The notes under the pieces were generated by a model. It was not told the DNA's origin. It saw only the letters and a program-made list of their open reading frames with translations, and did not search any database. The position numbers were made by a program, and so were the translations under genes. Positions 25,815 to 35,672 of a stretch of 64,000 bases of DNA are shown one piece after another. Source of the stretch: an uncultured bacterium (GTDB taxonomy: Bacteria; Bacteroidota; Rhodothermia; Rhodothermales; DASSAV01); NCBI GenBank assembly GCA_966250015.1, contig CBINFS010000015.1:6608-70607 (forward strand), written 5' to 3'. Position 1 is the stretch's first letter; the number at the start of each line of letters is the position of its first letter.

Positions 25815-26306
25815 TCATTCCAGCGTTTTCGGAAGGACGAGCCACACCAGCGTCCCCGTCCCCTGATTCACCTCCCGCCAGGAGTCGACCTCCAGGTCGA
25901 TACGCGCCATTGCGGCAGTCGGGAAACGAACGGCGGTGCCTCCAGTGAGCAGCCGAATCGTCATGGACAGTGACGGCTCATGCCCGACAACGAGTACGTT
26001 TTCGACGGCGTCTTCTATCGAATGTAAAACATCCAGCACCCCACCGGGGCTCGCTTCGTAGAGCTCATCAGTCACCTGCACCGGTACGTCCCATTGCGTG
26101 GCCTCAAGGGCGACGTCGAGCGTTTCCCTCGCGCGCTGTGCAGACGAGGTGATGCACACGTCAGGCACGAATCCTGTGTCCTTCAAATACTTCCCCATCT
26201 TCCGTGAAGCCTTGACGCCTCGCTTTTTTAATGGCCGCTCGTGATCACTTTGCTCTTCCGTATCCCAATCCGACTTTCCGTGCCTGAAAAAGATGACGTT
26301 TTTCAT
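25815..26306 (-). CDS. sixA: Phosphohistidine phosphatase SixA family
   Basis: RHGKS, SSAQRARET and VVGHEPS. Confidence 0.88.
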   Translation of the reverse strand: MKNVIFFRHGKSDWDTEEQSDHERPLKKRGVKASRKMGKYLKDTGFVPDVCITSSAQRARETLDVALEATQWDVPVQVTDELYEASPGGVLDVLHSIEDAVENVLVVGHEPSLSMTIRLLTGGTAVRFPTAAMARIDLEVDSWREVNQGTGTLVWLVLPKTLE

Positions 26307-26342
26307 GAGTATGTCGCTTTAAGTGTTAAGTCGGCCTGCCTT

Positions 26343-27095
26343 TTACGGAATTACGGAATTGGGAACCTGAACCACCGAACTATTGACCGTCATGATGAAA
26401 ACCGTGATGTACAGTATGACGCCGACCGTTAGTGCAATGGTAAAGGTGGTATATGAGTATCGTAAATATCGAAACTTGAAGGCCAGCACATGCCCGAGGT
26501 TGTATATGTCCACCATCATGTCTCGGTACAACCGGTCAGTGTCCTGAAGCAGTTCACTCATGCTGGTCAGGTATTCATCTTCGGAAAGCCCGACGAAATT
26601 ATTGAAAAACAAGATACTGGTATTGCGCCCTCTCTGCCCCGGCCTGGCTTCCAGTTTTCTACTGATTCGGGGCCGCGCAGCCTGAATCGCATTGACGATG
26701 GAAACAAGGCAACCGATGAGCAGCACCGACGTCGGAATGAGCAACCACGGATTGGCGTCGATCTTTGGTGAGATGGAGGCCAAAACGAACGATATGATGA
26801 TGCCGTTGATCGTGATCATGATGTTCGCCTTATTGTCGGCGAGCGCGCTCAGGTCGACGTGCTGCCGGTAAGAAGTGCGAAACATCGTCTCGATGCCTCT
26901 CTCCGATCCAATCCCCTTATCCTTCTTTTTCTTCTTCTTTTTGTCCTTTCTCTCCTTCTCAAGCTGAGTCGCCTCGACCTGTTCGAGCCTAACCGGATAA
27001 CTGCCAGGATCAGACACGGATAGAGGGGTCCCGACCTCTTTCTCACCATTGGGTGCGGTGAGCCTGGTTTGCAATTTGGTGCGCTTTTCTTCCAT
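26343..27095 (-). CDS. DUF5706 / Pycsar-effector-like (PycTM-type) membrane protein, stand-alone
   Basis: ERGIETMFR...HVDLSALADNKANIMITINGIII, TM helices, ILFF and LAFKFRYLRYSY, preceded by a Lys-rich segment. Confidence 0.8.
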   Translation of the reverse strand: MEEKRTKLQTRLTAPNGEKEVGTPLSVSDPGSYPVRLEQVEATQLEKERKDKKKKKKKDKGIGSERGIETMFRTSYRQHVDLSALADNKANIMITINGIIISFVLASISPKIDANPWLLIPTSVLLIGCLVSIVNAIQAARPRISRKLEARPGQRGRNTSILFFNNFVGLSEDEYLTSMSELLQDTDRLYRDMMVDIYNLGHVLAFKFRYLRYSYTTFTIALTVGVILYITVFIMTVNSSVVQVPNSVIP

Positions 27096-27163
27096 GGGGA
27101 TTATCCTCCCTCGATTTAGTTACTGCCGGACGTTTCGTCCTCGATCCGGTCGGTTTGCCCTGC

Positions 27164-30100
27164 TCAGTAGAAAAAGCCCAGCCTGAGCGTAAACATTTGC
27201 TCCTCGTTTGAGAAATCCATCGTCCCGGTGAGTATGGCGCGGTTGAAAACACCCATCCATAGACCGCCTCCGTAACCCTGATGCCATACCCGCGAGCGCT
27301 CGTGGTCTGCCCACACACGGCCATTGTCCAGGAAACCGAGGATGCCGATCTCACCACCAAGCAGGTAGGTCGAAAAACCGAATAGCCGAGCCCTTAGCTC
27401 GACGTTCTGAAACACGCTGCTTCGTCCTGAAAACCGGGTGCTGCGATAACCGCGGAGGTTGTCCTTACCGCCGAGCGTGCTGGCCGCATAGTAAGGCATC
27501 GATCCCAACACGTGCTCGGCTCCTACACGAACCGCCAGCGTTATCGGTGACCGAACGCCTTGAGAGAAATAGACGACGAGCTCCGTTCCTGCCCTCGTAT
27601 AATCGTCTTTCGCGTGCCGGAGGCCGTAATGTACGCCAACTCTTGCCTCCCACTTGTAGCCGTACTTCGGGTTGACCTTGTTATCGACCGTATTGATTGA
27701 GAGGGCGGTCTCCGCACCGGCGTACCACTGATCCTGGAACACCTCGTCGCCGATCTCACTGATGGGCATACCGATAAAACGGCTCCCATCGCGGTGTGTC
27801 TTCGTGACTTCCAGTTTTGGACCGATGGCAAAACGAATTCCCTCGCCAATGTTGTGTTCGACGGTCGGCAGGAACGTAAACTGTGTTATGCGTGCTTCAT
27901 AAAACGACGATGATCCCTCACGCAGAGTCTCATTCCCCATCCCGTAGTAGTTGCGGAGCGCACGCGGGGCCAGCAGGTCCGCCGACAAATGGACGTCCCA
28001 CCCTCCGAGTACGGAGACGAAAAGGCCGTCGTACACCACGTTAAACGCCAGCGTCCGGGCTGCAAAGTTGGCGCGAAACCGTTGCAGGTTTGCATACGGA
28101 TCCTTGCGGAATCCGTGCTTCTTCCACTCGAAGCCGCCTCCGACGTACACACCATCGTCCCGGTTTGAACCGAAATACGTCAGCGGCACGACGAGGTCGT
28201 GCTTGTAAGCCCAGCTATCGTATTCGTTTACGAGCGGATTATGAGATAGACGGATGCGCGTTTCACCGTTGGACTCAGCCTTTGTGCTCGAGACCGTATC
28301 GTAAAACCGGCCTTTCTTTCCGACACCCTTGACCCGTGAGCGGTCCACAAATACGTCGTCACCCGGTCCGCCGACGGCGGTAATGAGGATACCTTCGTTA
28401 ACCTCACCCGATATTTCGAATTGATCGTTGCCGCCGAGCCCGTACAATCGCACTTCATCCGTCTCATCGTCGTAGAACGTGCGCCTGTACATTATGTCCG
28501 AAACCTGACCTTCCTTTGTGGTTTTGTAAACCACAACTTCAGTCTCGTCGTTGTTCTTCCGGATGACTTCGAAGCGTTCATGTTTGTCGCTGGTTACGAC
28601 GTCTACGACGCGTGCGTACAGATCGTAGTAGTCTTCAGCGAGTTCGGGCAGTTTGTCCCTCCTGACACGAAGCAAATGGCCGAACTCCGGTGCGTATAGC
28701 TTCCAAATTGAATCCGGCCAGGCCAACGACGCTTCGTCGATCACATCGTCCGTAAGAGCGGCCTTTACGCTATCCGCAATCTCGATCCAGTCTTGCCTTG
28801 TCAGCATTGAGGTAAATCGCCGGTCCTGCTCCATCCCGTTTTTGGTAAGACCCTTCAGACTTCCATAATCCGAATGGAAATCCTGGAACTTGGGCATGAC
28901 GTATTGGACGAGCGACGGAAACACGCCGTTCATCCGATTGAATGCCCAGTCTCTATCCCGCGGGATGGGCCGGTAGGTGTGCCCTTTACCGTTTGGATTT
29001 TCAAATTCGGCCCATCGGAACTGGTCCCGGTGACGATCCCAATCGCTGATGAGGAAGTCGAGCAGACGAGCTCTCGCAAACGCCCTTTGGTCAATCCGAT
29101 TATCGTTGTCCTTGTTGAGCTTCTCGTACAGCTTTTCGGAACCGATCACGTTCTTCGAGCGGCCGAAGCTGGGCATGTCGGACACGTCGCCGTCCGGGCG
29201 TTCTTCGAACATCATGATTTGCCCGGCGAACATTGCGCGGTAGATCCCGAGTCTGGGGTCATCGGGTACGAAGACGATCTTGGGATTGGTGTGATAGACC
29301 CCTGCGGCTTCGGCAAGTCTCGGGACGACGAACGCACCGAACGGATGTAACGACGAGATCTGATCCTGGATGATGTCGAGCGCAACCGTTTCACGAAGGT
29401 CCTCCGGAACCGTTTTCGTCGGGTCCTTATCAATCGACCGTAGAACGTACTCGTGGCCATCTGCCCCCAAGAGTTGCAACGAGAGGGTCTGCATACCGCC
29501 GCCGAGCTCTATCGGTGTCAGCCCTCCGGCCTCTTTGCTCATGTCGAGAACCGGAACGGTGACAGGAGTAGTCCACGCCTTACGGTGCTGGCTGCCCAGG
29601 AAGAAGGTTTTAAAACCTCCCGCCTCATAGCTCGGATTAACGGCCAACTGCCGCGTGGCGCCTTCGGGCACTGAGAACGTCTCACCGGCAATTTGATCAT
29701 CTGATCCTGTGGGTAATGGACCGGCTTCCCTGAGCGCCACCCGGTAAAGGGTATTCCCCTCTCTACTTTCAGGTACAGCCTCCTTCATATCAAGCCAGAT
29801 CGAGCCATCCCGATGATATTCGATGATGGCAATTCCGGTCGCAGACCTGGAGAATCCAGTCCGGCCCGCTTTCGCAACGTATTCGGGGTTTTCACCTGCA
29901 CCACTGATAATGTGATGCACCTTGCCATCAGGCAAGTGTTGCAGGCTCCGGTCGTGGCCCGACGCGTAGATCAGGTTTTCATGTTGGCGAAAGAGGGTCG
30001 AGAATCCGCGCCGTAGAATTTGGTAACGAGAGGCGGCAAGGTCCTGGTCATTACCAACGAACCGTCTGTAAAGCGGATAGGCCGACCCTATCAACGGCAG

Positions 30101-30874
30101 AGGGAGATACGCGTTTTCAAACCGGGCCGTCAGAGGGAACAGGTGATACCGAAGGGGAAAGTGGCCACCGTGAATGCCCTGTGACCGGATCGGATGGTGC
30201 CCCACCACGATCAGGTCTTTTTTTCGGTTTCGCTTGATCAGGTCGTCGAGCTGGACGAGGAAGTCGCCGTCCTGTTCTTGGCCCATGTCGACGTTTTCTT
30301 CGTCACCTTCATCCCGGAACCACTCCCTGGTATTCAATAGGATTAGTGTCAGCGATCCCGTCAGCTCGATCTCAATCGGCTCCATCGAATGATCCGTGGG
30401 AGCAACGATCTGTCCCACGGATGACGGAGTCGAAGCATCTGCGATCGCTTCCACTTCCGGTGCGTAGAAAGACCCATCGTGTTCTCCCGGCACGAGAATC
30501 ACTCTGCCCTGATACGAGCTGAATGCACGACGGGGAGCCTCTTGTTGAATCTCAGGAAGCCCGGCATACTGAACCTCCGTTTCATCCAGGAAACAACACG
30601 GCAGCCGATCGCCGAGAAAAACGACGCTGCTACGGCTGCCGGCCTCTTCGAGATGGTACGCTAACAGATCCGACATGGGCGAATCGTATTCGCCGTCAGG
30701 CCCGGCGTCGCCCACCAGAATGATCCGGTAATCGACGGTAGAGTCCGACCCTGCGTTGACCGCCGATCCAGATCCGACCCCCGCCTGCTGAACCGTACCA
30801 CACGCTGTGATCAGCAACAGCGCGACGATAGAGATGCCCCTGAGTATCCAATCAGTTCTCATCTTTTTCCTCAA
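27164..30874 (-). CDS. Omp85/BamA-TamA-family outer-membrane lipoprotein with N-terminal calcineurin-like metallophosphoesterase and central atypical-kinase-like domain
   Basis: Lipobox LLLITAC; phosphoesterase GDAG/GDR/GEHD/GHHP/GHD; central GGGMQT..YVLRS..DWDRHRDQ..PRDRD; C-terminal barrel with LRGYRSTRFSG and terminal GFFY. Confidence 0.85.
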   Translation of the reverse strand: MRKKMRTDWILRGISIVALLLITACGTVQQAGVGSGSAVNAGSDSTVDYRIILVGDAGPDGEYDSPMSDLLAYHLEEAGSRSSVVFLGDRLPCCFLDETEVQYAGLPEIQQEAPRRAFSSYQGRVILVPGEHDGSFYAPEVEAIADASTPSSVGQIVAPTDHSMEPIEIELTGSLTLILLNTREWFRDEGDEENVDMGQEQDGDFLVQLDDLIKRNRKKDLIVVGHHPIRSQGIHGGHFPLRYHLFPLTARFENAYLPLPLIGSAYPLYRRFVGNDQDLAASRYQILRRGFSTLFRQHENLIYASGHDRSLQHLPDGKVHHIISGAGENPEYVAKAGRTGFSRSATGIAIIEYHRDGSIWLDMKEAVPESREGNTLYRVALREAGPLPTGSDDQIAGETFSVPEGATRQLAVNPSYEAGGFKTFFLGSQHRKAWTTPVTVPVLDMSKEAGGLTPIELGGGMQTLSLQLLGADGHEYVLRSIDKDPTKTVPEDLRETVALDIIQDQISSLHPFGAFVVPRLAEAAGVYHTNPKIVFVPDDPRLGIYRAMFAGQIMMFEERPDGDVSDMPSFGRSKNVIGSEKLYEKLNKDNDNRIDQRAFARARLLDFLISDWDRHRDQFRWAEFENPNGKGHTYRPIPRDRDWAFNRMNGVFPSLVQYVMPKFQDFHSDYGSLKGLTKNGMEQDRRFTSMLTRQDWIEIADSVKAALTDDVIDEASLAWPDSIWKLYAPEFGHLLRVRRDKLPELAEDYYDLYARVVDVVTSDKHERFEVIRKNNDETEVVVYKTTKEGQVSDIMYRRTFYDDETDEVRLYGLGGNDQFEISGEVNEGILITAVGGPGDDVFVDRSRVKGVGKKGRFYDTVSSTKAESNGETRIRLSHNPLVNEYDSWAYKHDLVVPLTYFGSNRDDGVYVGGGFEWKKHGFRKDPYANLQRFRANFAARTLAFNVVYDGLFVSVLGGWDVHLSADLLAPRALRNYYGMGNETLREGSSSFYEARITQFTFLPTVEHNIGEGIRFAIGPKLEVTKTHRDGSRFIGMPISEIGDEVFQDQWYAGAETALSINTVDNKVNPKYGYKWEARVGVHYGLRHAKDDYTRAGTELVVYFSQGVRSPITLAVRVGAEHVLGSMPYYAASTLGGKDNLRGYRSTRFSGRSSVFQNVELRARLFGFSTYLLGGEIGILGFLDNGRVWADHERSRVWHQGYGGGLWMGVFNRAILTGTMDFSNEEQMFTLRLGFFY

Positions 30875-30934
30875 TACGGTTCATCAAGCCATTTCTTGCG
30901 CCCGTACAGGTTTTCCTCGATGTAAAGAAACACG

Positions 30935-33517
30935 CTAATACCCCTGCGTCTCTCTGGCATAGTGGCGAAGAGAATCCCTCGCCAGCTCACGTATTACCTT
31001 AACGATGGTCTTAGCCGTAATGGGTGATCCTTCGTCGAGATAACGGCTATCCAGGCGGAAGAGCGTGCAACCTCGCACGACGCGCACACTGGCAACAGGG
31101 GAGGCATCGACAAATACGGAGGCCCCATTGAATACGTCACCAGTCCCGAAGCGCCGAACCGGTTGCTCCGGTCCCTCGACTACCAGCTCTCCTTCTCTTA
31201 CGACAAATAACGCCGACGAGGGTCGGTCTGAAGACACTACGACGTCTCCGGCTTCGTATCGGACCGTTTCCAGAAGTCGGCTGATCGTTTCCAGCTCGTC
31301 ACGGCTGAGGGATCGGAAAGGCTCGTGCTCGCCGAGGAACTGCGGGATGTCCGGCGATTGACGGTCGGAAGCAGCGGCGGCAGGCTCCCTTTCCTCCGTA
31401 TCTCGTTTAGACTGGAGATAAACGTTCTCCGTGGACCCTGATATCTCATCTGACTCCTTCTTCAGCAAGCTGTACGTATCAAGCTGCGCGCGCACCGGTG
31501 GGGCCTGATCGTCGCGGATGTACTGGTTGGTCTGCTCCTCGTCGATGATCCTGGCTTTGGTGTTGTCGGCAAGGTGAAGCTCGACGAGCTTGCGTATTTC
31601 TTGCTTCAGCCTGTCGTCAAGAATCGGAAAGGCTACCTCCACACGCTCGCTGAGGTTACGTCTCATCCAATCGGCAGAGGCCAGGTAGTATTCTTCTGCC
31701 CCATCGTTGTAGAAAATGAAAACTCGCGAGTGTTCGAGGAAGCGGTCGACGATGCTCCGGACGCGTATGTTTTCGCTCTGCCCCTTAACACCAGGAACGA
31801 GTCTGCAAATACCCCGAACGACCAGATCGACGCGTACACCGGCGTTGGAGGCCTCGTACAGGCGTGTGATGATTTTCGTGTCTTCGAGGCTGTTCATTTT
31901 CAAAATGATTCGCGCCTCACGACCCGACTGTGCGTGCTCGATCTCCCGATCGATCAACCGGTAAAGTGACTTTCTCAGATAGAACGGTGCTACGAGCACC
32001 CGCTCGAACGAAGGTTTTTCGATCTCGCCGGATAGAAATCCGAAAACCTTCCGGATGTCCCGCGTTATTGTTTGGTCTGCCGTAAATAACCCTTCATCCG
32101 TGTAGATTCGGGCGGTTTTTTCGTTGAAGTTCCCGGTCGAGAGGTAGGCCAGCATGGGCGGGTCGGCCCCTGGAGAGCGAACGACGAGTGCGAGCTTGGC
32201 ATGGACCTTCAGGCCCGGCATGCTGTACAGAATGCGGATGCCGGCCTGCTCCATCTGTTCTGCCCAGAACAGGTTCGGCTCCTCGTCGAAACGCGCCTTG
32301 ATCTCGACGAACGCCGTCACCCGTTTCCCCTTCCTCGCAGCCTCGATCAGGGCGCTCACTACTTTAGATTGAGAAGCCACCCTGTATAGTGCAATCCAGA
32401 TCTCTTCGACCTCGGGGTCGTCGGTTGCTTCGTGGAGAAAATCGACCACGTAGTCGAAGCTCTGGTATGGCAAATGTAAAAGCAGGTCTTGCTCCTTGAT
32501 GGCCGAAAACAGGGAGGGATAGCCACTGATCACCGGGTGGCCAAGGGGCGGCAACGGAGCATAACACAGGTCCTTGAATCCGAATCGCGGAAATGAATGC
32601 AGATCGTGGAGGTTGTGATATCTTCCCCCGGGAACGAGGTCGTCCTCGTCAAACCTCATCCTCGAGGTGAGGACGGAAACCATTTCCACCGGCATGTTCA
32701 GATCGTACAGGACACGGCACGGGATTCCACTCGCTCGTTTTGCCAGCCCCTTGGCGATCTTTTCCTTTAAGTTGCCCGTGTACTCGTCGTCGAGATTCAG
32801 GTCTGCATCTCGCGAAAGCTTGACGGCATAGGCCTGCCCTATCTCGTACTCGGGGAAGATCTGCGGCAGATTGAACCGCACGATGTCGTCGAGGAACATC
32901 ACGTATTGATGTTCCCCGGTGCCCGGAATCCAGACGAACCGGGGCAGAACCGTTCTGGGGACCTCGACGACGCCATAGCTCAGACCACGCCGGTCCTCGC
33001 TTCCATTCACCGGCCACGCCCTGAGAGCAGTCAAGAGAAAGAGGCACTTATCCGGCAGAAACGGGACGTCGCGTTCATCATCCAGAAAATAAGGGCGAAC
33101 GTGCGGCCTGACCTGCTCATCGAAGTATTTCCGGACGAACTCAGCCTGCTCTTCCTTTACGTCCTGGTCGTTGATCAGCCGGATGCCCAGCGCCTCCAGC
33201 TCCGGGAGAATCTCCTCCCTGAATATCCGCCCAAACTCTTCCTGCTGCCCGGTAACGACCCGGTATATCTGCTTGAGCAGCTTCGAGGGATTAAAGTCCA
33301 GATTGTCGATGGACTTCTTTTTTAGTCGAAGCAGGCTTCGCAGAGAGGCTACCCTGACCCTGAAAAACTCGTCCAGGTTGGAGGAGAAAATCGCAAGGAA
33401 GGAGAGGCGTTCGAACAACGGGACCGTCGGGTCCTTTGCCTCTTGCAGTACACGTCCGTTAAAGCTTAGCCAGCTTAATTCCCGGTCGAAATAGATGTAT
33501 TTATCACGTTTAGCCAT
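30935..33517 (-). CDS. ppk1: Polyphosphate kinase 1 with C-terminal cyclic-nucleotide-binding-fold extension
   Basis: DRELSWLSFNGRVLQEA, NLDEFFRVRVA, EIKARFDE, KVHAKL, STGNFN, RFLEHSR and SADWMRRN, plus about 170 extra C-terminal residues with a CNBD pattern. Confidence 0.95.
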   Translation of the reverse strand: MAKRDKYIYFDRELSWLSFNGRVLQEAKDPTVPLFERLSFLAIFSSNLDEFFRVRVASLRSLLRLKKKSIDNLDFNPSKLLKQIYRVVTGQQEEFGRIFREEILPELEALGIRLINDQDVKEEQAEFVRKYFDEQVRPHVRPYFLDDERDVPFLPDKCLFLLTALRAWPVNGSEDRRGLSYGVVEVPRTVLPRFVWIPGTGEHQYVMFLDDIVRFNLPQIFPEYEIGQAYAVKLSRDADLNLDDEYTGNLKEKIAKGLAKRASGIPCRVLYDLNMPVEMVSVLTSRMRFDEDDLVPGGRYHNLHDLHSFPRFGFKDLCYAPLPPLGHPVISGYPSLFSAIKEQDLLLHLPYQSFDYVVDFLHEATDDPEVEEIWIALYRVASQSKVVSALIEAARKGKRVTAFVEIKARFDEEPNLFWAEQMEQAGIRILYSMPGLKVHAKLALVVRSPGADPPMLAYLSTGNFNEKTARIYTDEGLFTADQTITRDIRKVFGFLSGEIEKPSFERVLVAPFYLRKSLYRLIDREIEHAQSGREARIILKMNSLEDTKIITRLYEASNAGVRVDLVVRGICRLVPGVKGQSENIRVRSIVDRFLEHSRVFIFYNDGAEEYYLASADWMRRNLSERVEVAFPILDDRLKQEIRKLVELHLADNTKARIIDEEQTNQYIRDDQAPPVRAQLDTYSLLKKESDEISGSTENVYLQSKRDTEEREPAAAASDRQSPDIPQFLGEHEPFRSLSRDELETISRLLETVRYEAGDVVVSSDRPSSALFVVREGELVVEGPEQPVRRFGTGDVFNGASVFVDASPVASVRVVRGCTLFRLDSRYLDEGSPITAKTIVKVIRELARDSLRHYARETQGY

Positions 33518-33832: not shown

Positions 33833-34222
33833 TCACCTCAAAGCTTGCCTTGATGGCTCCAGTTTTCTTTCGATCTCTACTACCTTGGCCAGAAGCAAAT
33901 CATTTGAGAAGGGCTTCAGAATGTACGCGTCGGCGCCCGCTTCAACAGCTTCCAGCACGTCCTCCGCCTCTTTCCGCGTGGCCATGATCATGATACCGTG
34001 ACGGTGCATCTCACGTTTGCGGACGCGTCGGATCAGCTCGATACCACTCAACCCGGGAAGCTTCCACTCGGCAATCAACAAGTCGACCCGATGCTTCTGA
34101 AGGTAATCCCAGGCCTCCTCACCCGTGGAGGCTGCCTGCACGTCGGTATAACCGGCTTCCAAAAGTGTTCTCACGACGCCCCTCAGGCTGGTGCCGTTGG
34201 CATCGACTACCAATATCCTCAT
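33833..34222 (-). CDS. Single-domain response regulator (CheY-like), atypical (Asp to Glu)
   Basis: MRILVVDA..., DLLIAEWKLPGLSGIEL and GADAYILKPF. Confidence 0.88.
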   Translation of the reverse strand: MRILVVDANGTSLRGVVRTLLEAGYTDVQAASTGEEAWDYLQKHRVDLLIAEWKLPGLSGIELIRRVRKREMHRHGIMIMATRKEAEDVLEAVEAGADAYILKPFSNDLLLAKVVEIERKLEPSRQALR

Positions 34223-34286
34223 TTCGTTTTCTTGTTGACCAAAATCAGAGCCGGGTTGCAGCTGAAAAAATCAAATATGCCCGTCA

Positions 34287-35522
34287 TCAGGGTTCAGATA
34301 CTCGAACGACCACCGGAAAGGCGTAATCGTACCAGAAACGATCGATCAAGTCCGGGTCCGGCTCTCCATCGTACGTCAAGAAGCGATAACGAACGTTGTA
34401 CGGCTGACCGGGATCGATCGCCCAGTCACCCATCTGTGACGGAGCGTAGTTGAAAAACGGCTCATCCGGGTGAATACGCATGGGCTGCGGCGAACGGAAG
34501 TTCTGCGGATGATCGAGTACGGCAATGCCGACCATCTGCCCGTCCACCAAACCCCCGATGTGGCACCACCGCGCCCTGGTAGCGTGCCCATTGCTGCGAT
34601 CCAGACCTTCCGACGTGAGGAAAACCGCATTGTCTGCCCCGTTCCAGTCGCGGTGCCCGCGAAAGCCCACACCACCGTAATGATACTCCGGCAGCACGAG
34701 CGGTGACGCGAAATGGCAGTATTGGACGATTTCGATATCGAATACCCTGACGGGGCGGTCAGCCGACACCATCGGGTAAACGTTCACCTCCCACACTTCG
34801 TCCAGCGCGACCTTGGGTTCGCCTCCGGTCAGGTCGACGTACTGGTTGGAAGCACGAAGGCCTCCTCGTACCGGACCACTCCACGTTTCCTCGAGCCCCA
34901 CCGGTTCAACAAACCCGGTAGAATCGCCCATATTCCAGAAATCAGGAGTGCGGCCTTCAAAGACCGTGCGGGTCCAGGCAGCCCAAATCCCGTGATGATG
35001 CAAATGGTTGGGTGGATAATCATCTGTAAGCATCAACCCGTTCGGGGTATAGACCGGATGGATGTACCCGCCACGCTGGAAAATTGGTGGGATGTCCGGA
35101 CGGGGTAAAGGCGTTTTTTCATAGTGGTAGGTAAGCACCGGCTGGCCAGACTCAGAAATGCTGACCGATCCCTCATCGTCAATCACAGCGACCCGTTCGT
35201 CAGCCAGGCGCTCATTCCCCTCAATGCTTCTGATCCGGTACCGACGGGTTTCTCCGGCCATCAACGAATCCAGAATAAAGGTGGCCGTTCGATCGTCGTC
35301 TATCTGAAGCGGCACCACCTGCCCGTCTTCACCGGCCAGTACGTACCGATCGCCGAAGAGCCCGTCCGGCATGGTAAACGTGACGACACTCCAGTGCCGA
35401 TCGTATGACCCTGCTTCGACGGTTATCGCAAAATCACCATTCTCCTGCGCCAGACACGGCGTGTTCATGAGGAACGCCGCAGCACATAGTGTCGTCAGGA
35501 CAATGGCTGTTTTTCGATTCAT
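34287..35522 (-). CDS. Secreted PmoA-like family (DUF6807) protein
   Basis: Signal peptide; YIHPVYTPNG..LTDDYP..HLHHHGIW and YGGVGFRG; start set at MNRKTAIV. Confidence 0.75.
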   Translation of the reverse strand: MNRKTAIVLTTLCAAAFLMNTPCLAQENGDFAITVEAGSYDRHWSVVTFTMPDGLFGDRYVLAGEDGQVVPLQIDDDRTATFILDSLMAGETRRYRIRSIEGNERLADERVAVIDDEGSVSISESGQPVLTYHYEKTPLPRPDIPPIFQRGGYIHPVYTPNGLMLTDDYPPNHLHHHGIWAAWTRTVFEGRTPDFWNMGDSTGFVEPVGLEETWSGPVRGGLRASNQYVDLTGGEPKVALDEVWEVNVYPMVSADRPVRVFDIEIVQYCHFASPLVLPEYHYGGVGFRGHRDWNGADNAVFLTSEGLDRSNGHATRARWCHIGGLVDGQMVGIAVLDHPQNFRSPQPMRIHPDEPFFNYAPSQMGDWAIDPGQPYNVRYRFLTYDGEPDPDLIDRFWYDYAFPVVVRVSEP

Positions 35523-35672
35523 GATGAAGTCAGAAGAGTTCTCCCTGGCAAAGTGAGGCGGCAAACTGTTGCTCCTGACTACGGGAAGCACACGTTCGAA
35601 TTAAAAGTAGGCCAGGAGGTAAAGAACCGCTAATAGCGACGATGAAAAAAGTATGCCGTCAGAAGTATGTCT

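Follow-up and report, generated by a model that had tools for sequence, protein, structure and literature searches.

What switches on polyphosphate kinase 1 (PPK1) is still an open question: a 2026 preprint on E. coli, which indicates post-translational control, states that the trigger of polyphosphate (polyP) accumulation "has remained unknown" (PMC13596347). Canonical PPK1 enzymes, such as those of E. coli (1xdo/1xdp) and Porphyromonas gingivalis (2o8r), share a four-domain N, head, C1 and C2 layout with KVHAK and LEHSR motifs. Cyclic-nucleotide-binding domains (CNBDs) carry a phosphate-binding cassette with the consensus FGE[LIM]AL...R[ST]A, in which Gly-Glu serves the ribose 2'-OH and Arg the cyclic phosphate (PMC6717892, PMC10959531), which the Arg neutralises in canonical CNBDs (PMC10959531). 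Bacterial CNBD-enzyme fusions that are activated by cyclic nucleoside monophosphates (cNMPs) exist, an example being Bdellovibrio Bd1971, in which an N-terminal CNBD with the consensus cassette FGEMALIDNQNRSA is joined by a linker to the EAL catalytic domain of an oligomeric enzyme (PMC6717892). The fold is also functionally important where no cyclic nucleotide is bound, as in the CNB-homology domain of KCNH channels, which has an intrinsic ligand (PMC5299623, PMC5881448), and in CNB-C of PfPKG (PMC4412288). In the PKA regulatory subunits (PKAR) of trypanosomatids, a non-basic residue stands in place of the cassette Arg, the ribose-binding Gly-Glu is kept and a second Glu is added, and purine nucleosides are bound instead of cAMP, so that an Arg-less CNBD acts as a high-affinity sensor of another ligand (PMC10959531).

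We analysed a 64,000-nucleotide stretch of DNA from an uncultured Rhodothermales bacterium (the window, to which all coordinates refer; all features described lie on its minus strand). Positions 30935..33517 form a single continuous open reading frame of 860 amino acids (stop codon, 30935-30937). The encoded protein joins a PPK1 body (residues 1-689; 31451..33517), a short linker (residues 690-723; 31349..31450) and a C-terminal CNBD-fold domain (residues ~724-860; 30938..31348). The in-frame PPK1-CNBD fusion proposed by a sequence-only reading is real, with PPK1 and PF00027 domains found by Pfam, and every peptide quoted in that reading (PFRSLSRDEL, RYEAGDVV, ALFVVREGELVV, GDVFNGASVFVDASPVAS and ASVRVVRGCTLFRL) is present. 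Four PPK1 domains (PP_kinase_N, PF13089; PP_kinase, PF02503; PP_kinase_C_1, PF17941; PP_kinase_C, PF13090) lie at residues 9-678 with E values of 1e-35 to 1e-73, and the fusion protein scores 774.4 bits against TIGR03705 poly_P_kin, for which the curated equivalog cut-off is 465.85. The full-length AF2 model has a pTM of 0.76, with pLDDT mostly above 90 over the PPK1 body. KVHAK (residues 437-441; 32195..32209), with the conserved C1-domain histidine His439, and LEHSR (residues 594-598; 31724..31738), with the conserved C2-domain histidine His596, align to GLKVHAK and LEHSR of 2o8r; K437, V438, H439 and K441, and L594, E595, H596 and R598, are invariant across 44 PPK1 sequences. From E. coli PPK, we take His439 and His596 to be the autophosphorylated histidine and its partner in the two PLD-like C domains. 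By its motifs, the PPK1 part appears to be catalytically competent. It belongs to an accessory PPK1 clade and is 37% identical to the second PPK1 of the same genome, a paralog present in nearly all relatives.

Because the solved PPK1 structures 2o8r and 1xdo (683-705 amino acids) align end to end with residues 6-686, the last ~170 residues of the window protein are extra, and canonical PPK1 has no counterpart of this C-terminal CNBD. The view that ordinary PPK1 is without such a domain holds among the 120 nearest PPK1 clusters, 116 of which are 679-770 amino acids long and have no PF00027 match. What had been described as a low-complexity linker is so only in part. The segment is acidic (pI 4.2), 65% identical to that of a close fused relative, P0003, and constrained (omega ~0.09), but AF2 prolongs the last PPK1 helix (677-710) through its first part and leaves disorder only at ~711-723 (pLDDT below 50 at 710-721).

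The fusion is free of artefact, rare and conserved. An identical protein is encoded on three contigs, the junction and tail sequence occur in 19 runs from 13 studies, and contigs of three independent DNA metagenomes cross the junction without indels and carry no indels or stops in the tail. An 852-nt metatranscriptome contig (30866-31717) also crosses the junction without indels, consistent with transcription of the fusion. Nor is the architecture unique to this assembly, as four other fused proteins were found: P0003 (857 amino acids) and P0006 (860), which are 82% and 59% identical overall to the window protein with the tail conserved, P0004/G004 (954) and G002, whose tail scores 22.7 bits in Pfam, under the cut-off. 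Three members of the same family (G001, G005 and G006) have no tail. The frequency among PPK1 homologs, which the sequence-only reading had singled out for checking, is low: the fusion occurs in 4 of the 120 closest PPK1 clusters and, within the order, in 3 of 285 species genomes, which all belong to one family. Word-based searches with the tails alone returned just the protein itself, P0003 and one unrelated ABC transporter, and a profile search with five tails against 1.84 billion representatives was uninformative, with only P0004 fused among the best 150, which were multi-CNBD proteins with summed domain scores. Further fused proteins are probably concealed by the clustering at 50% identity, in which PPK1 proteins that have no tail would represent them. 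Five other long open frames of the order that match the tail (794-1325 amino acids) all proved to contain no PPK1. The literature searched held no description of a PPK1-CNBD fusion, which is a new domain architecture made from known parts.

Several lines of evidence identify the tail as a CNBD. PF00027 (cNMP_binding) matches residues 752-827 with an E value of 1.3e-9 and 38.3 bits in the whole protein, or 41.2 bits with the tail alone as query, against a gathering cut-off of 27.5 bits. In phmmer searches of the PDB, the tail matches CNB domains of PKG and PKA (best E 2.8e-12), and weak sequence matches include KCNH CNBHD chains and the PKAR of T. brucei and T. cruzi (6flo, 6h4g). AF2 predicts the full fold, namely N-terminal helices, an eight-stranded beta roll with an embedded P-helix, and a C-terminal hinge/lid helix, with a core pLDDT of 80-92; Foldseek matches the model to PKA RI-alpha CNB-B, PKG and MlotiK1 (E 3e-9, TM 0.7-0.77, rmsd 2.2 Å over 132 columns), and all of the top 50 matches are CNBDs. 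A CNBD fold had been suspected from the letters alone, and the Pfam scan, the model and its structural matches all agree on it. The C-terminal helix (835-856) is predicted as one continuous helix with low confidence toward its end and with no additional strand. The KCNH CNB-homology domain, in contrast, carries its intrinsic-ligand strand after the C-helix, a difference that may count against a KCNH-like pseudo-sensor.

The phosphate-binding cassette is degenerate, as alignments to PfPKG CNB-D, to the fused relatives and to 23 CNBD-AlbA_2 proteins indicate (residues 796-810, FNGASVFVDASPVAS; 31088..31132). When FNGASVFVDASPVASV of the window is aligned to FGERALLYDEPRTASI of PfPKG CNB-D, Gly-Glu corresponds to Asn797-Gly798 (Glu to Gly798) and Arg to Pro807, giving FNG...P in place of the functional FGE...R and of the consensus; the lack of the canonical GE and Arg had been noticed from the outset. 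A short helix at the position of the P-helix (798-802) is still predicted by AF2. With neither Lys nor Arg in the cassette and a tail pI of 5.5, on the acidic side, binding of polyP or phosphate by the cassette is unlikely. Just before it, strand beta5 carries Arg788-Arg789 (31151..31156); position 788 is Lys or Arg in all related CNBDs and aligns to the Arg in LRTLG, a motif of PfPKG CNB-D. This position presumably contacts the base in PKG. The genome encodes six PF00027 domains, all of them without a complete FGE..R cassette.

Comparison with P0003 separates two halves of the cassette. The first, GDVFNGASVFV, is identical in the two proteins, whereas the loop around the lost Arg (DASPVAS in the window and EEPSVSS in P0003) shares only three of seven residues in a domain that is 81% identical overall, and is its most variable part between close relatives. 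That the Arg-site loop varies most argues against the phosphate site having acquired a new ligand that is conserved, and it favours a regulatory or interaction role independent of any ligand no less than a novel ligand.

The tail probably originates from a group of stand-alone Saprospiraceae proteins of ~300 amino acids that combine a CNBD with an SLFN_AlbA_2 domain. The window tail matches them with up to 44 bits but, unlike the window protein, all 23 examined are encoded by separate genes and have both an FGE..R cassette (23 of 23) and AlbA_2. Two loci connect the arrangements. In a Saprospiraceae MAG, L028, ppk1 is followed by a separate CNBD+SLFN_AlbA_2 gene, with both Pfam domains present and an FGE..R cassette, and then by an Omp85 gene. 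The fused protein G004 has an intact FGE..R cassette and a degenerate AlbA_2-like domain; its tail covers both domains, and its C terminus aligns to the AlbA_2 domain of L028 (E 8e-9). P0006 reads LNE with no Arg, the window and P0003 FNG with no Arg. As relatives with intact FGE...R exist in G004 and L028, the cassette degeneracy is a derived loss in the lineage of the window; together, the fused G004 and the separate gene of L028 indicate that this lineage lost both the cNMP-contacting residues and AlbA_2. The window protein stops right after the CNBD C-helix, without the AlbA_2 domain that marks CNBD-SLFN_AlbA_2 proteins, and its tail is probably a derivative of these proteins and not a member. 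With a threshold of E ≤ 1e-8, 30 of 151 Saprospiraceae genomes have a match to the family; of 25 loci retrieved, about 23 encode full-length proteins and one (L028) adjoins ppk1, so Rosetta-stone support from Saprospiraceae for a link to ppk1 is weak. The fused proteins fall in two clades of the PPK1 tree, but a single clade is not rejected by the AU test (p 0.44), so that both one fusion and two independent fusions are compatible with the data.

Selection on the tail is strong. Over residues 736-830, pN is 0.105 and pS 0.70, giving an omega of ~0.06 that equals the value for the PPK1 domains. Evolution is faster in the final 30 residues (omega 0.44); omega values are approximate, as dS is saturated (1.3-2.0). 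Such purifying selection argues that the tail has some function. The explanation that we favour overall, and to which we give about an even chance, is that the tail is a CNBD-derived regulatory or interaction pseudo-sensor on an accessory PPK1, with the response to cAMP/cGMP lost. The ancestral module would have been a genuine cNMP-binding CNBD-AlbA_2, either encoded separately, immediately downstream of ppk1, or fused as a tail, and a cNMP-activated fusion of the Bd1971 type is likely to represent the ancestral logic, with G004 keeping FGE..R. In the lineage of the window, AlbA_2 would have been lost and the anchors for the ribose 2'-OH and the cyclic phosphate replaced, Glu by Gly798 and Arg by Pro807. 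Because both anchor residues are replaced, the canonical response to cAMP/cGMP has most likely been lost, a judgement drawn from these two positions. The tail could then regulate PPK1 from within the molecule, mediate its oligomerisation or dock a partner, and so modulate its activity or placement, in a manner comparable to ligand-free KCNH CNB-homology domains; for the roles of Glu and Arg and for degenerate CNBDs, we rely on published precedents (PMC6717892, PMC10959531, PMC4412288, PMC5299623). The context differs from that of KCNH and PfPKG CNB-C in being a bacterial enzyme, and the tail would be a bacterial case in which selection has preserved a CNBD whose nucleotide anchors are gone. 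Any effect of the tail on PPK1 is one that we infer, and the idea of the sequence-only reading, that a non-canonical ligand or a protein partner controls the enzyme allosterically, is plausible.

The main rival to the pseudo-sensor is a new small ligand. The tail may be a sensor re-tuned from 3',5'-cyclic nucleotides to some other small molecule (for example a nucleoside, another purine derivative or an unrelated metabolite) that gates PPK1, a tentative reading that we hold to be clearly less probable. It would be in keeping with strong purifying selection over the whole beta roll, with a cassette helix identical to that of P0003 and with the retained basic residue on beta5, and the cassettes of the genome's six PF00027 domains would make use of ligands other than cNMPs the norm in this organism. 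Trypanosomatid PKAR provides a precedent (PMC10959531), with a non-basic residue for the cassette Arg as in the window. P0006, in which Glu is kept without Arg, is closer in pattern to PKAR than is the window, where the Gly-Glu kept by nucleoside binders (PMC10959531) has become Asn-Gly. Loss of this Glu speaks against re-tuning, as do the unlike Arg-site loops of close relatives and a gene context that suggests no candidate ligand. The identity of GDVFNGASVFV and the predicted P-helix could equally mean a conserved ligand pocket, and the beta5 basic residue (Arg788), conserved in all relatives, likewise sits uneasily with a pseudo-sensor; Arg788 is kept where the ribose-phosphate anchors are gone.

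The neighbouring genes bear on a related possibility. Downstream, 60 bp past the ppk1-CNBD stop and with no terminator-like site in the gap, lies a gene for a 1236-residue Omp85-family outer-membrane protein (27164..30874; PF01103, NF047779), followed by genes for a 250-residue PycTM-family (DUF5706) membrane protein (26343..27095; PF18967, E 5.9e-26; PADLOC PycTM, 2TM models) and a 163-residue SixA-like histidine phosphatase (25815..26306; PF00300), which scores 63.6 bits against TIGR00249 sixA, below the cut-off of 74.5. Upstream, a stand-alone receiver-domain protein of 129 amino acids is encoded (33833..34222; PF00072). An Omp85-family gene also follows ppk1-CNBD at two other loci, L017 and L104; the receiver gene is kept as neighbour in L017 and absent there in L104, the PycTM-family gene is syntenic in L104 and in many CNBD-less PPK1 loci, and a SixA-like gene recurs beside this PPK1 clade. 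PycTM-SixA-PPK1-Omp85 synteny as a whole is widespread without any CNBD.

In Pycsar systems, a pyrimidine cyclase (PycC) adjoins an effector in which a CNBD is fused to PycTM or TIR. The window resembles them in encoding a CNBD and a PycTM-family protein in one operon, but its CNBD is on PPK1 and PycTM is a separate gene. The tails of G004 and L028 show a weak likeness (E 1e-5 to 4e-4) to the CNBD portion of TIR effector models, and the window tail matches one PADLOC model at no better than E 0.003. No cyclase was found in the operon or the window, and the genome's only PF00211 protein, a class III cyclase homolog, is on another contig (C10). With no adjacent cyclase, so slight a PADLOC match and PycTM-PPK1 synteny common without a CNBD, we rejected a Pycsar reading. 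It is possible, if doubtful, that the CNBD has been re-tuned to a non-cyclic-nucleotide ligand (a nucleoside or purine derivative) or else docks PPK1 to the PycTM-type inner-membrane protein of the operon. Docking would recreate in trans the CNBD and PycTM pairing of Pycsar effectors, and under either alternative a signal would directly gate polyphosphate synthesis by the accessory PPK1, and the enzyme would be tied to a PycTM/Omp85/SixA envelope module.

It is improbable that compensating contacts still allow the tail to bind cAMP, cGMP or a pyrimidine cNMP, which would make the protein a cNMP-regulated PPK1. The Pfam score over the cut-off, the class III cyclase homolog, the PycTM-family gene in the operon and the known cNMP-activated bacterial fusions (Bd1971; PMC6717892) would fit such binding, as would G004 with its intact cassette, a relative of a type that probably is a cNMP-regulated PPK1. 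Yet both anchors are gone from a cassette that has no Lys or Arg, the Arg being the residue that neutralises the cyclic phosphate (PMC10959531), the sole cyclase lies outside the window on another contig, and PycTM-PPK1 linkage is widespread without a CNBD. Hardly credible, and largely refuted already, is a functionless remnant being lost or an assembly or frameshift artefact: the loss of AlbA_2, the faster last 30 residues, the sub-threshold tail of G002 and the tail-less G001, G005 and G006 would point that way, but the low omega over the beta roll, the tail conserved in P0003 and P0006, the indel- and stop-free contigs of independent metagenomes and the metatranscriptome contig covering the tail do not.

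The relatives form a natural series, from an intact fused cassette (G004) through a half-degenerate one (P0006) to fully degenerate ones (the window and P0003), with a separate gene in L028. Differing from Bd1971 in the position of the CNBD (C-terminal), in lacking Glu and Arg and in having PPK1 and not an EAL enzyme as output, the series would be an experimental ladder for asking if PPK1 can be gated by a C-terminal sensor, by what mechanism, and which PPK1 surfaces are sensitive to allostery. It offers a natural route to studying the control of polyphosphate synthesis in a PPK1 from a soil and compost Rhodothermales bacterium. The organism is widespread across metagenomes from soil, compost and manure, and the protein is therefore no isolated case.

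An uninterrupted open reading frame of 860 codons (30935..33517, minus strand) encodes PPK1 fused to a C-terminal cyclic-nucleotide-binding domain (CNBD) whose phosphate-binding cassette is degenerate. This observation of the sequence-only reading is confirmed by the single frame, its Pfam domains, the predicted fold and independent contigs, and all of the peptide strings quoted there are present in the sequence. A Pfam scan assigned residues 9–678 to PP_kinase_N, PP_kinase, PP_kinase_C_1 and PP_kinase_C, and the protein passes the NCBIfam PPK1 equivalog model TIGR03705 (774 bits versus a cut-off of 465.85). The PPK1 structures 2o8r and 1xdo align to residues 6–686 without large gaps, and the motifs containing His439 (KVHAK) and His596 (LEHSR) are invariant in an alignment of 44 sequences. 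These sequence features argue that the PPK1 part is complete, looks active and stops at the usual PPK1 end.

The suspicion that the tail forms a CNBD was borne out by both sequence and predicted structure. Pfam cNMP_binding (PF00027) matches residues 752–827 with 38.3 bits, above the gathering score of 27.5, and phmmer against PDB sequences matched the tail to PKG and PKA CNB domains (best E 2.8e-12). Residues 690–860 modelled with AF2 reach a core pLDDT of 80–92, and the Foldseek matches of this model are all CNB domains (E down to 3e-9, TM up to 0.77, rmsd 2.2 Å over 132 columns), including PKA RI-alpha CNB-B, PKG I and II, PfPKA-R, MlotiK1, HCN and CRP-type regulators. In the full-length AF2 model, which was built on 44 sequences (mean pLDDT 86.5, pTM 0.76), the last PPK1 helix extends to about residue 710, residues 710–721 are disordered (pLDDT <50), the CNBD occupies residues 724–856 (pLDDT 72–91) and a short cassette helix persists at 798–802.

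Alignment of PfPKG CNB-D (FGERALLYDEPRTASI) with the fused protein (FNGASVFVDASPVASV) places Asn797-Gly798 at the canonical Gly-Glu and Pro807 at the canonical Arg, in agreement with the reported absence of both. The Arg of the consensus cassette neutralises the cyclic phosphate (PMC6717892, PMC10959531); Bd1971 carries such a consensus cassette (FGEMALIDNQNRSA), whereas in the fused PPK1 Gly-Glu and Arg are both replaced. Neither Lys nor Arg occurs in the 15 residues of the cassette, which sits in an acidic tail (pI 5.5). Among fused relatives, the cassette reads FNG with no Arg in P0003, as in the window, LNE with no Arg in P0006 and FGG with Lys in genome G002, while FGE...R is kept in genome G004 and in all 23 of the CNBD-AlbA_2 proteins examined. 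How PPK1 is regulated is still an unsolved question, and across the relatives the cassette grades naturally from intact to fully degenerate. None of the six PF00027 domains of the window's genome (G000), the fused one included, has a complete FGE...R cassette; the other five (contigs C1, C6, C9, C27 and C42; loci L110–L113 and L115) show incomplete versions such as FGY..RRTET, IGSFGLLKGGAAIYEA and FGWSSLVPPHDSTA. The genome's single class III cyclase homolog lies on another contig.

The fusion is not peculiar to this assembly. The identical protein is present on three contigs, and 666 bases spanning the PPK1 end, tail and stop are fully contained in 19 public runs from 13 studies of soil, manure, compost, rhizosphere and landfill. 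The junction is also crossed, with 1–4 substitutions and no indels, by contigs from three independent DNA metagenomes; one of these contigs is 56 kb long. A compost metatranscriptome contig of 852 nt covers 30866–31717 and so takes in part of PPK1 C2, the junction, the complete tail and the stop; it would fit a single message that carries both PPK1 and tail, DNA carry-over being another possible source of the contig.

The fusion is also rare. Within the best 120 of 7838 scored PPK1 clusters, PF00027 occurs in four: the window protein itself, P0003 (857 aa, 82% identical to it), P0006 (860 aa, 59%) and P0004 (954 aa, 50%, from G004). The remaining clusters of the 120 are 679–770 aa long and have no PF00027, as had been stated for standard PPK1. 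Three of the seven species genomes of the window's GTDB family carry the fusion (G000, G002 and G004), and these are the only carriers among 285 genomes of the order Rhodothermales; five further long ORFs with CNBD matches in the order were rejected as candidates, there being no PPK1 in them. One of 80 species-representative PPK1 loci from other lineages is fused (L018, the G004 locus). We found no description of a PPK1–CNBD fusion in the literature. It is a new domain architecture made from known parts, rare, conserved and environmentally widespread.

Clues to the origin of the tail come from a Saprospiraceae MAG (L028), alone among the same 80 loci in having a CNBD as a separate gene directly after ppk1. 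There, ppk1 (674 aa) is followed by a CNBD + SLFN_AlbA_2 protein (300 aa) and a homolog (1238 aa) of the window's downstream Omp85 gene. The G004 fusion has about 118 further residues beyond its CNBD, which match the L028 AlbA_2 domain (E 8e-9). At E <= 1e-8, 30 of 151 Saprospiraceae genomes have a match to the CNBD-AlbA_2 family. Among the loci fetched (about 23 of 25 full-length), these proteins of about 300 aa (L116–L138, genomes G285–G432) strictly conserve an FGE...R.G cassette in varied genomic contexts. Gene-neighbourhood support for a general CNBD–PPK1 partnership is thin, since L028 is the sole ppk1-adjacent case among the 25. The simplest history suggested by these sequences is that a cNMP-binding CNBD-AlbA_2 gene was recruited behind ppk1 and fused to it, and that the window's lineage would then have shed AlbA_2 and the nucleotide anchors. 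A PPK1 tree divides the fused proteins into two well-supported clades (window, P0003 and P0006 versus G004 and G002); a single clade is not rejected (AU test, p 0.44), so one or two fusion events are both possible.

Codon-by-codon comparison of the window with P0003 (locus L017) gave, with dS saturated and ratios therefore approximate, an omega of about 0.06 for the CNBD beta roll (736–830; pN 0.105, pS 0.70), 0.03–0.09 for the PPK1 domains, about 0.09 for the linker and 0.44 for the last 30 residues. Both proteins share GDVFNGASVFV, the first half of the cassette, without a difference, and the loop normally bearing Arg is the most divergent stretch of the domain (DASPVAS versus EEPSVSS). This pattern fits a domain that still depends on its scaffold and cassette helix but whose phosphate site has been released from constraint.

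The proposal that a non-canonical ligand or a protein partner controls polyP synthesis through the tail is partly supported. What is established is the fusion, its fold and its rarity, the cassette loss and the selection; statements on what the tail does are inferences. We give roughly even chances to a CNBD-derived pseudo-sensor that has lost its cAMP or cGMP response and that an accessory PPK1 retains for intramolecular regulation, for oligomerisation or for docking a partner. A sensor re-tuned for a non-cyclic ligand, for which trypanosomatid PKA regulatory subunits offer a precedent (PMC10959531), is appreciably less probable, and residual non-canonical cNMP binding is improbable. It is very improbable that the tail is a remnant or the fusion an artefact: the CNBD omega, approximate under dS saturation, rules out decay, and the three contigs and indel-free metagenomic junctions speak against artefact.

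The window's genome carries a pair of PPK1 paralogs, of which the fused one falls in an accessory clade that occurs in roughly half of the genomes of the order. The second (G000:C6:93312-95252; 37% identical, inside a 763-codon stop-to-stop open frame) is the version nearly universal in the order. The fused gene is the first of a co-oriented set, followed after a 60-bp gap, in which we found no terminator-like site, by genes for an Omp85-family protein (1236 aa), a PycTM-family membrane protein (250 aa) and a SixA-like phosphatase; this order is repeated after P0003 and P0006. PycTM, SixA-like and Omp85 genes also surround this PPK1 clade, with the CNBD absent, in Ignavibacteria, Calditrichia and Chitinophagales, so the linkage goes with PPK1 rather than with the tail.

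The gene types of window positions 25815–30874 flank PPK1 in about 20 of the 80 species-representative loci (L019–L044, L055, L058, L065 and L066; those lineages, Gemmatimonadota and others), in variable order and orientation and never with a CNBD. Most of these PycTM proteins are about 400 aa long with an N-terminal HD domain (for example, L020); the window's 250-aa copy has a merely Lys-rich N-terminus. CHAD domains are associated with polyP granules, and the P0006 locus adds a 518-aa CHAD-domain protein (L104 9382–10938, minus strand) between the PycTM and SixA-like genes, where the window has none. Upstream of ppk1-CNBD, a stand-alone receiver-domain gene and a DUF6807 gene occur in the window (33833–35591) and on the P0003 contig (L017 7962–9666) and are absent from the P0006 contig. 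In three relatives (L054 379–2431, G016:C202 and G024:C64) the orthologous PPK1 is split over two adjacent frames, which points to a frameshift or else to an error in sequencing.
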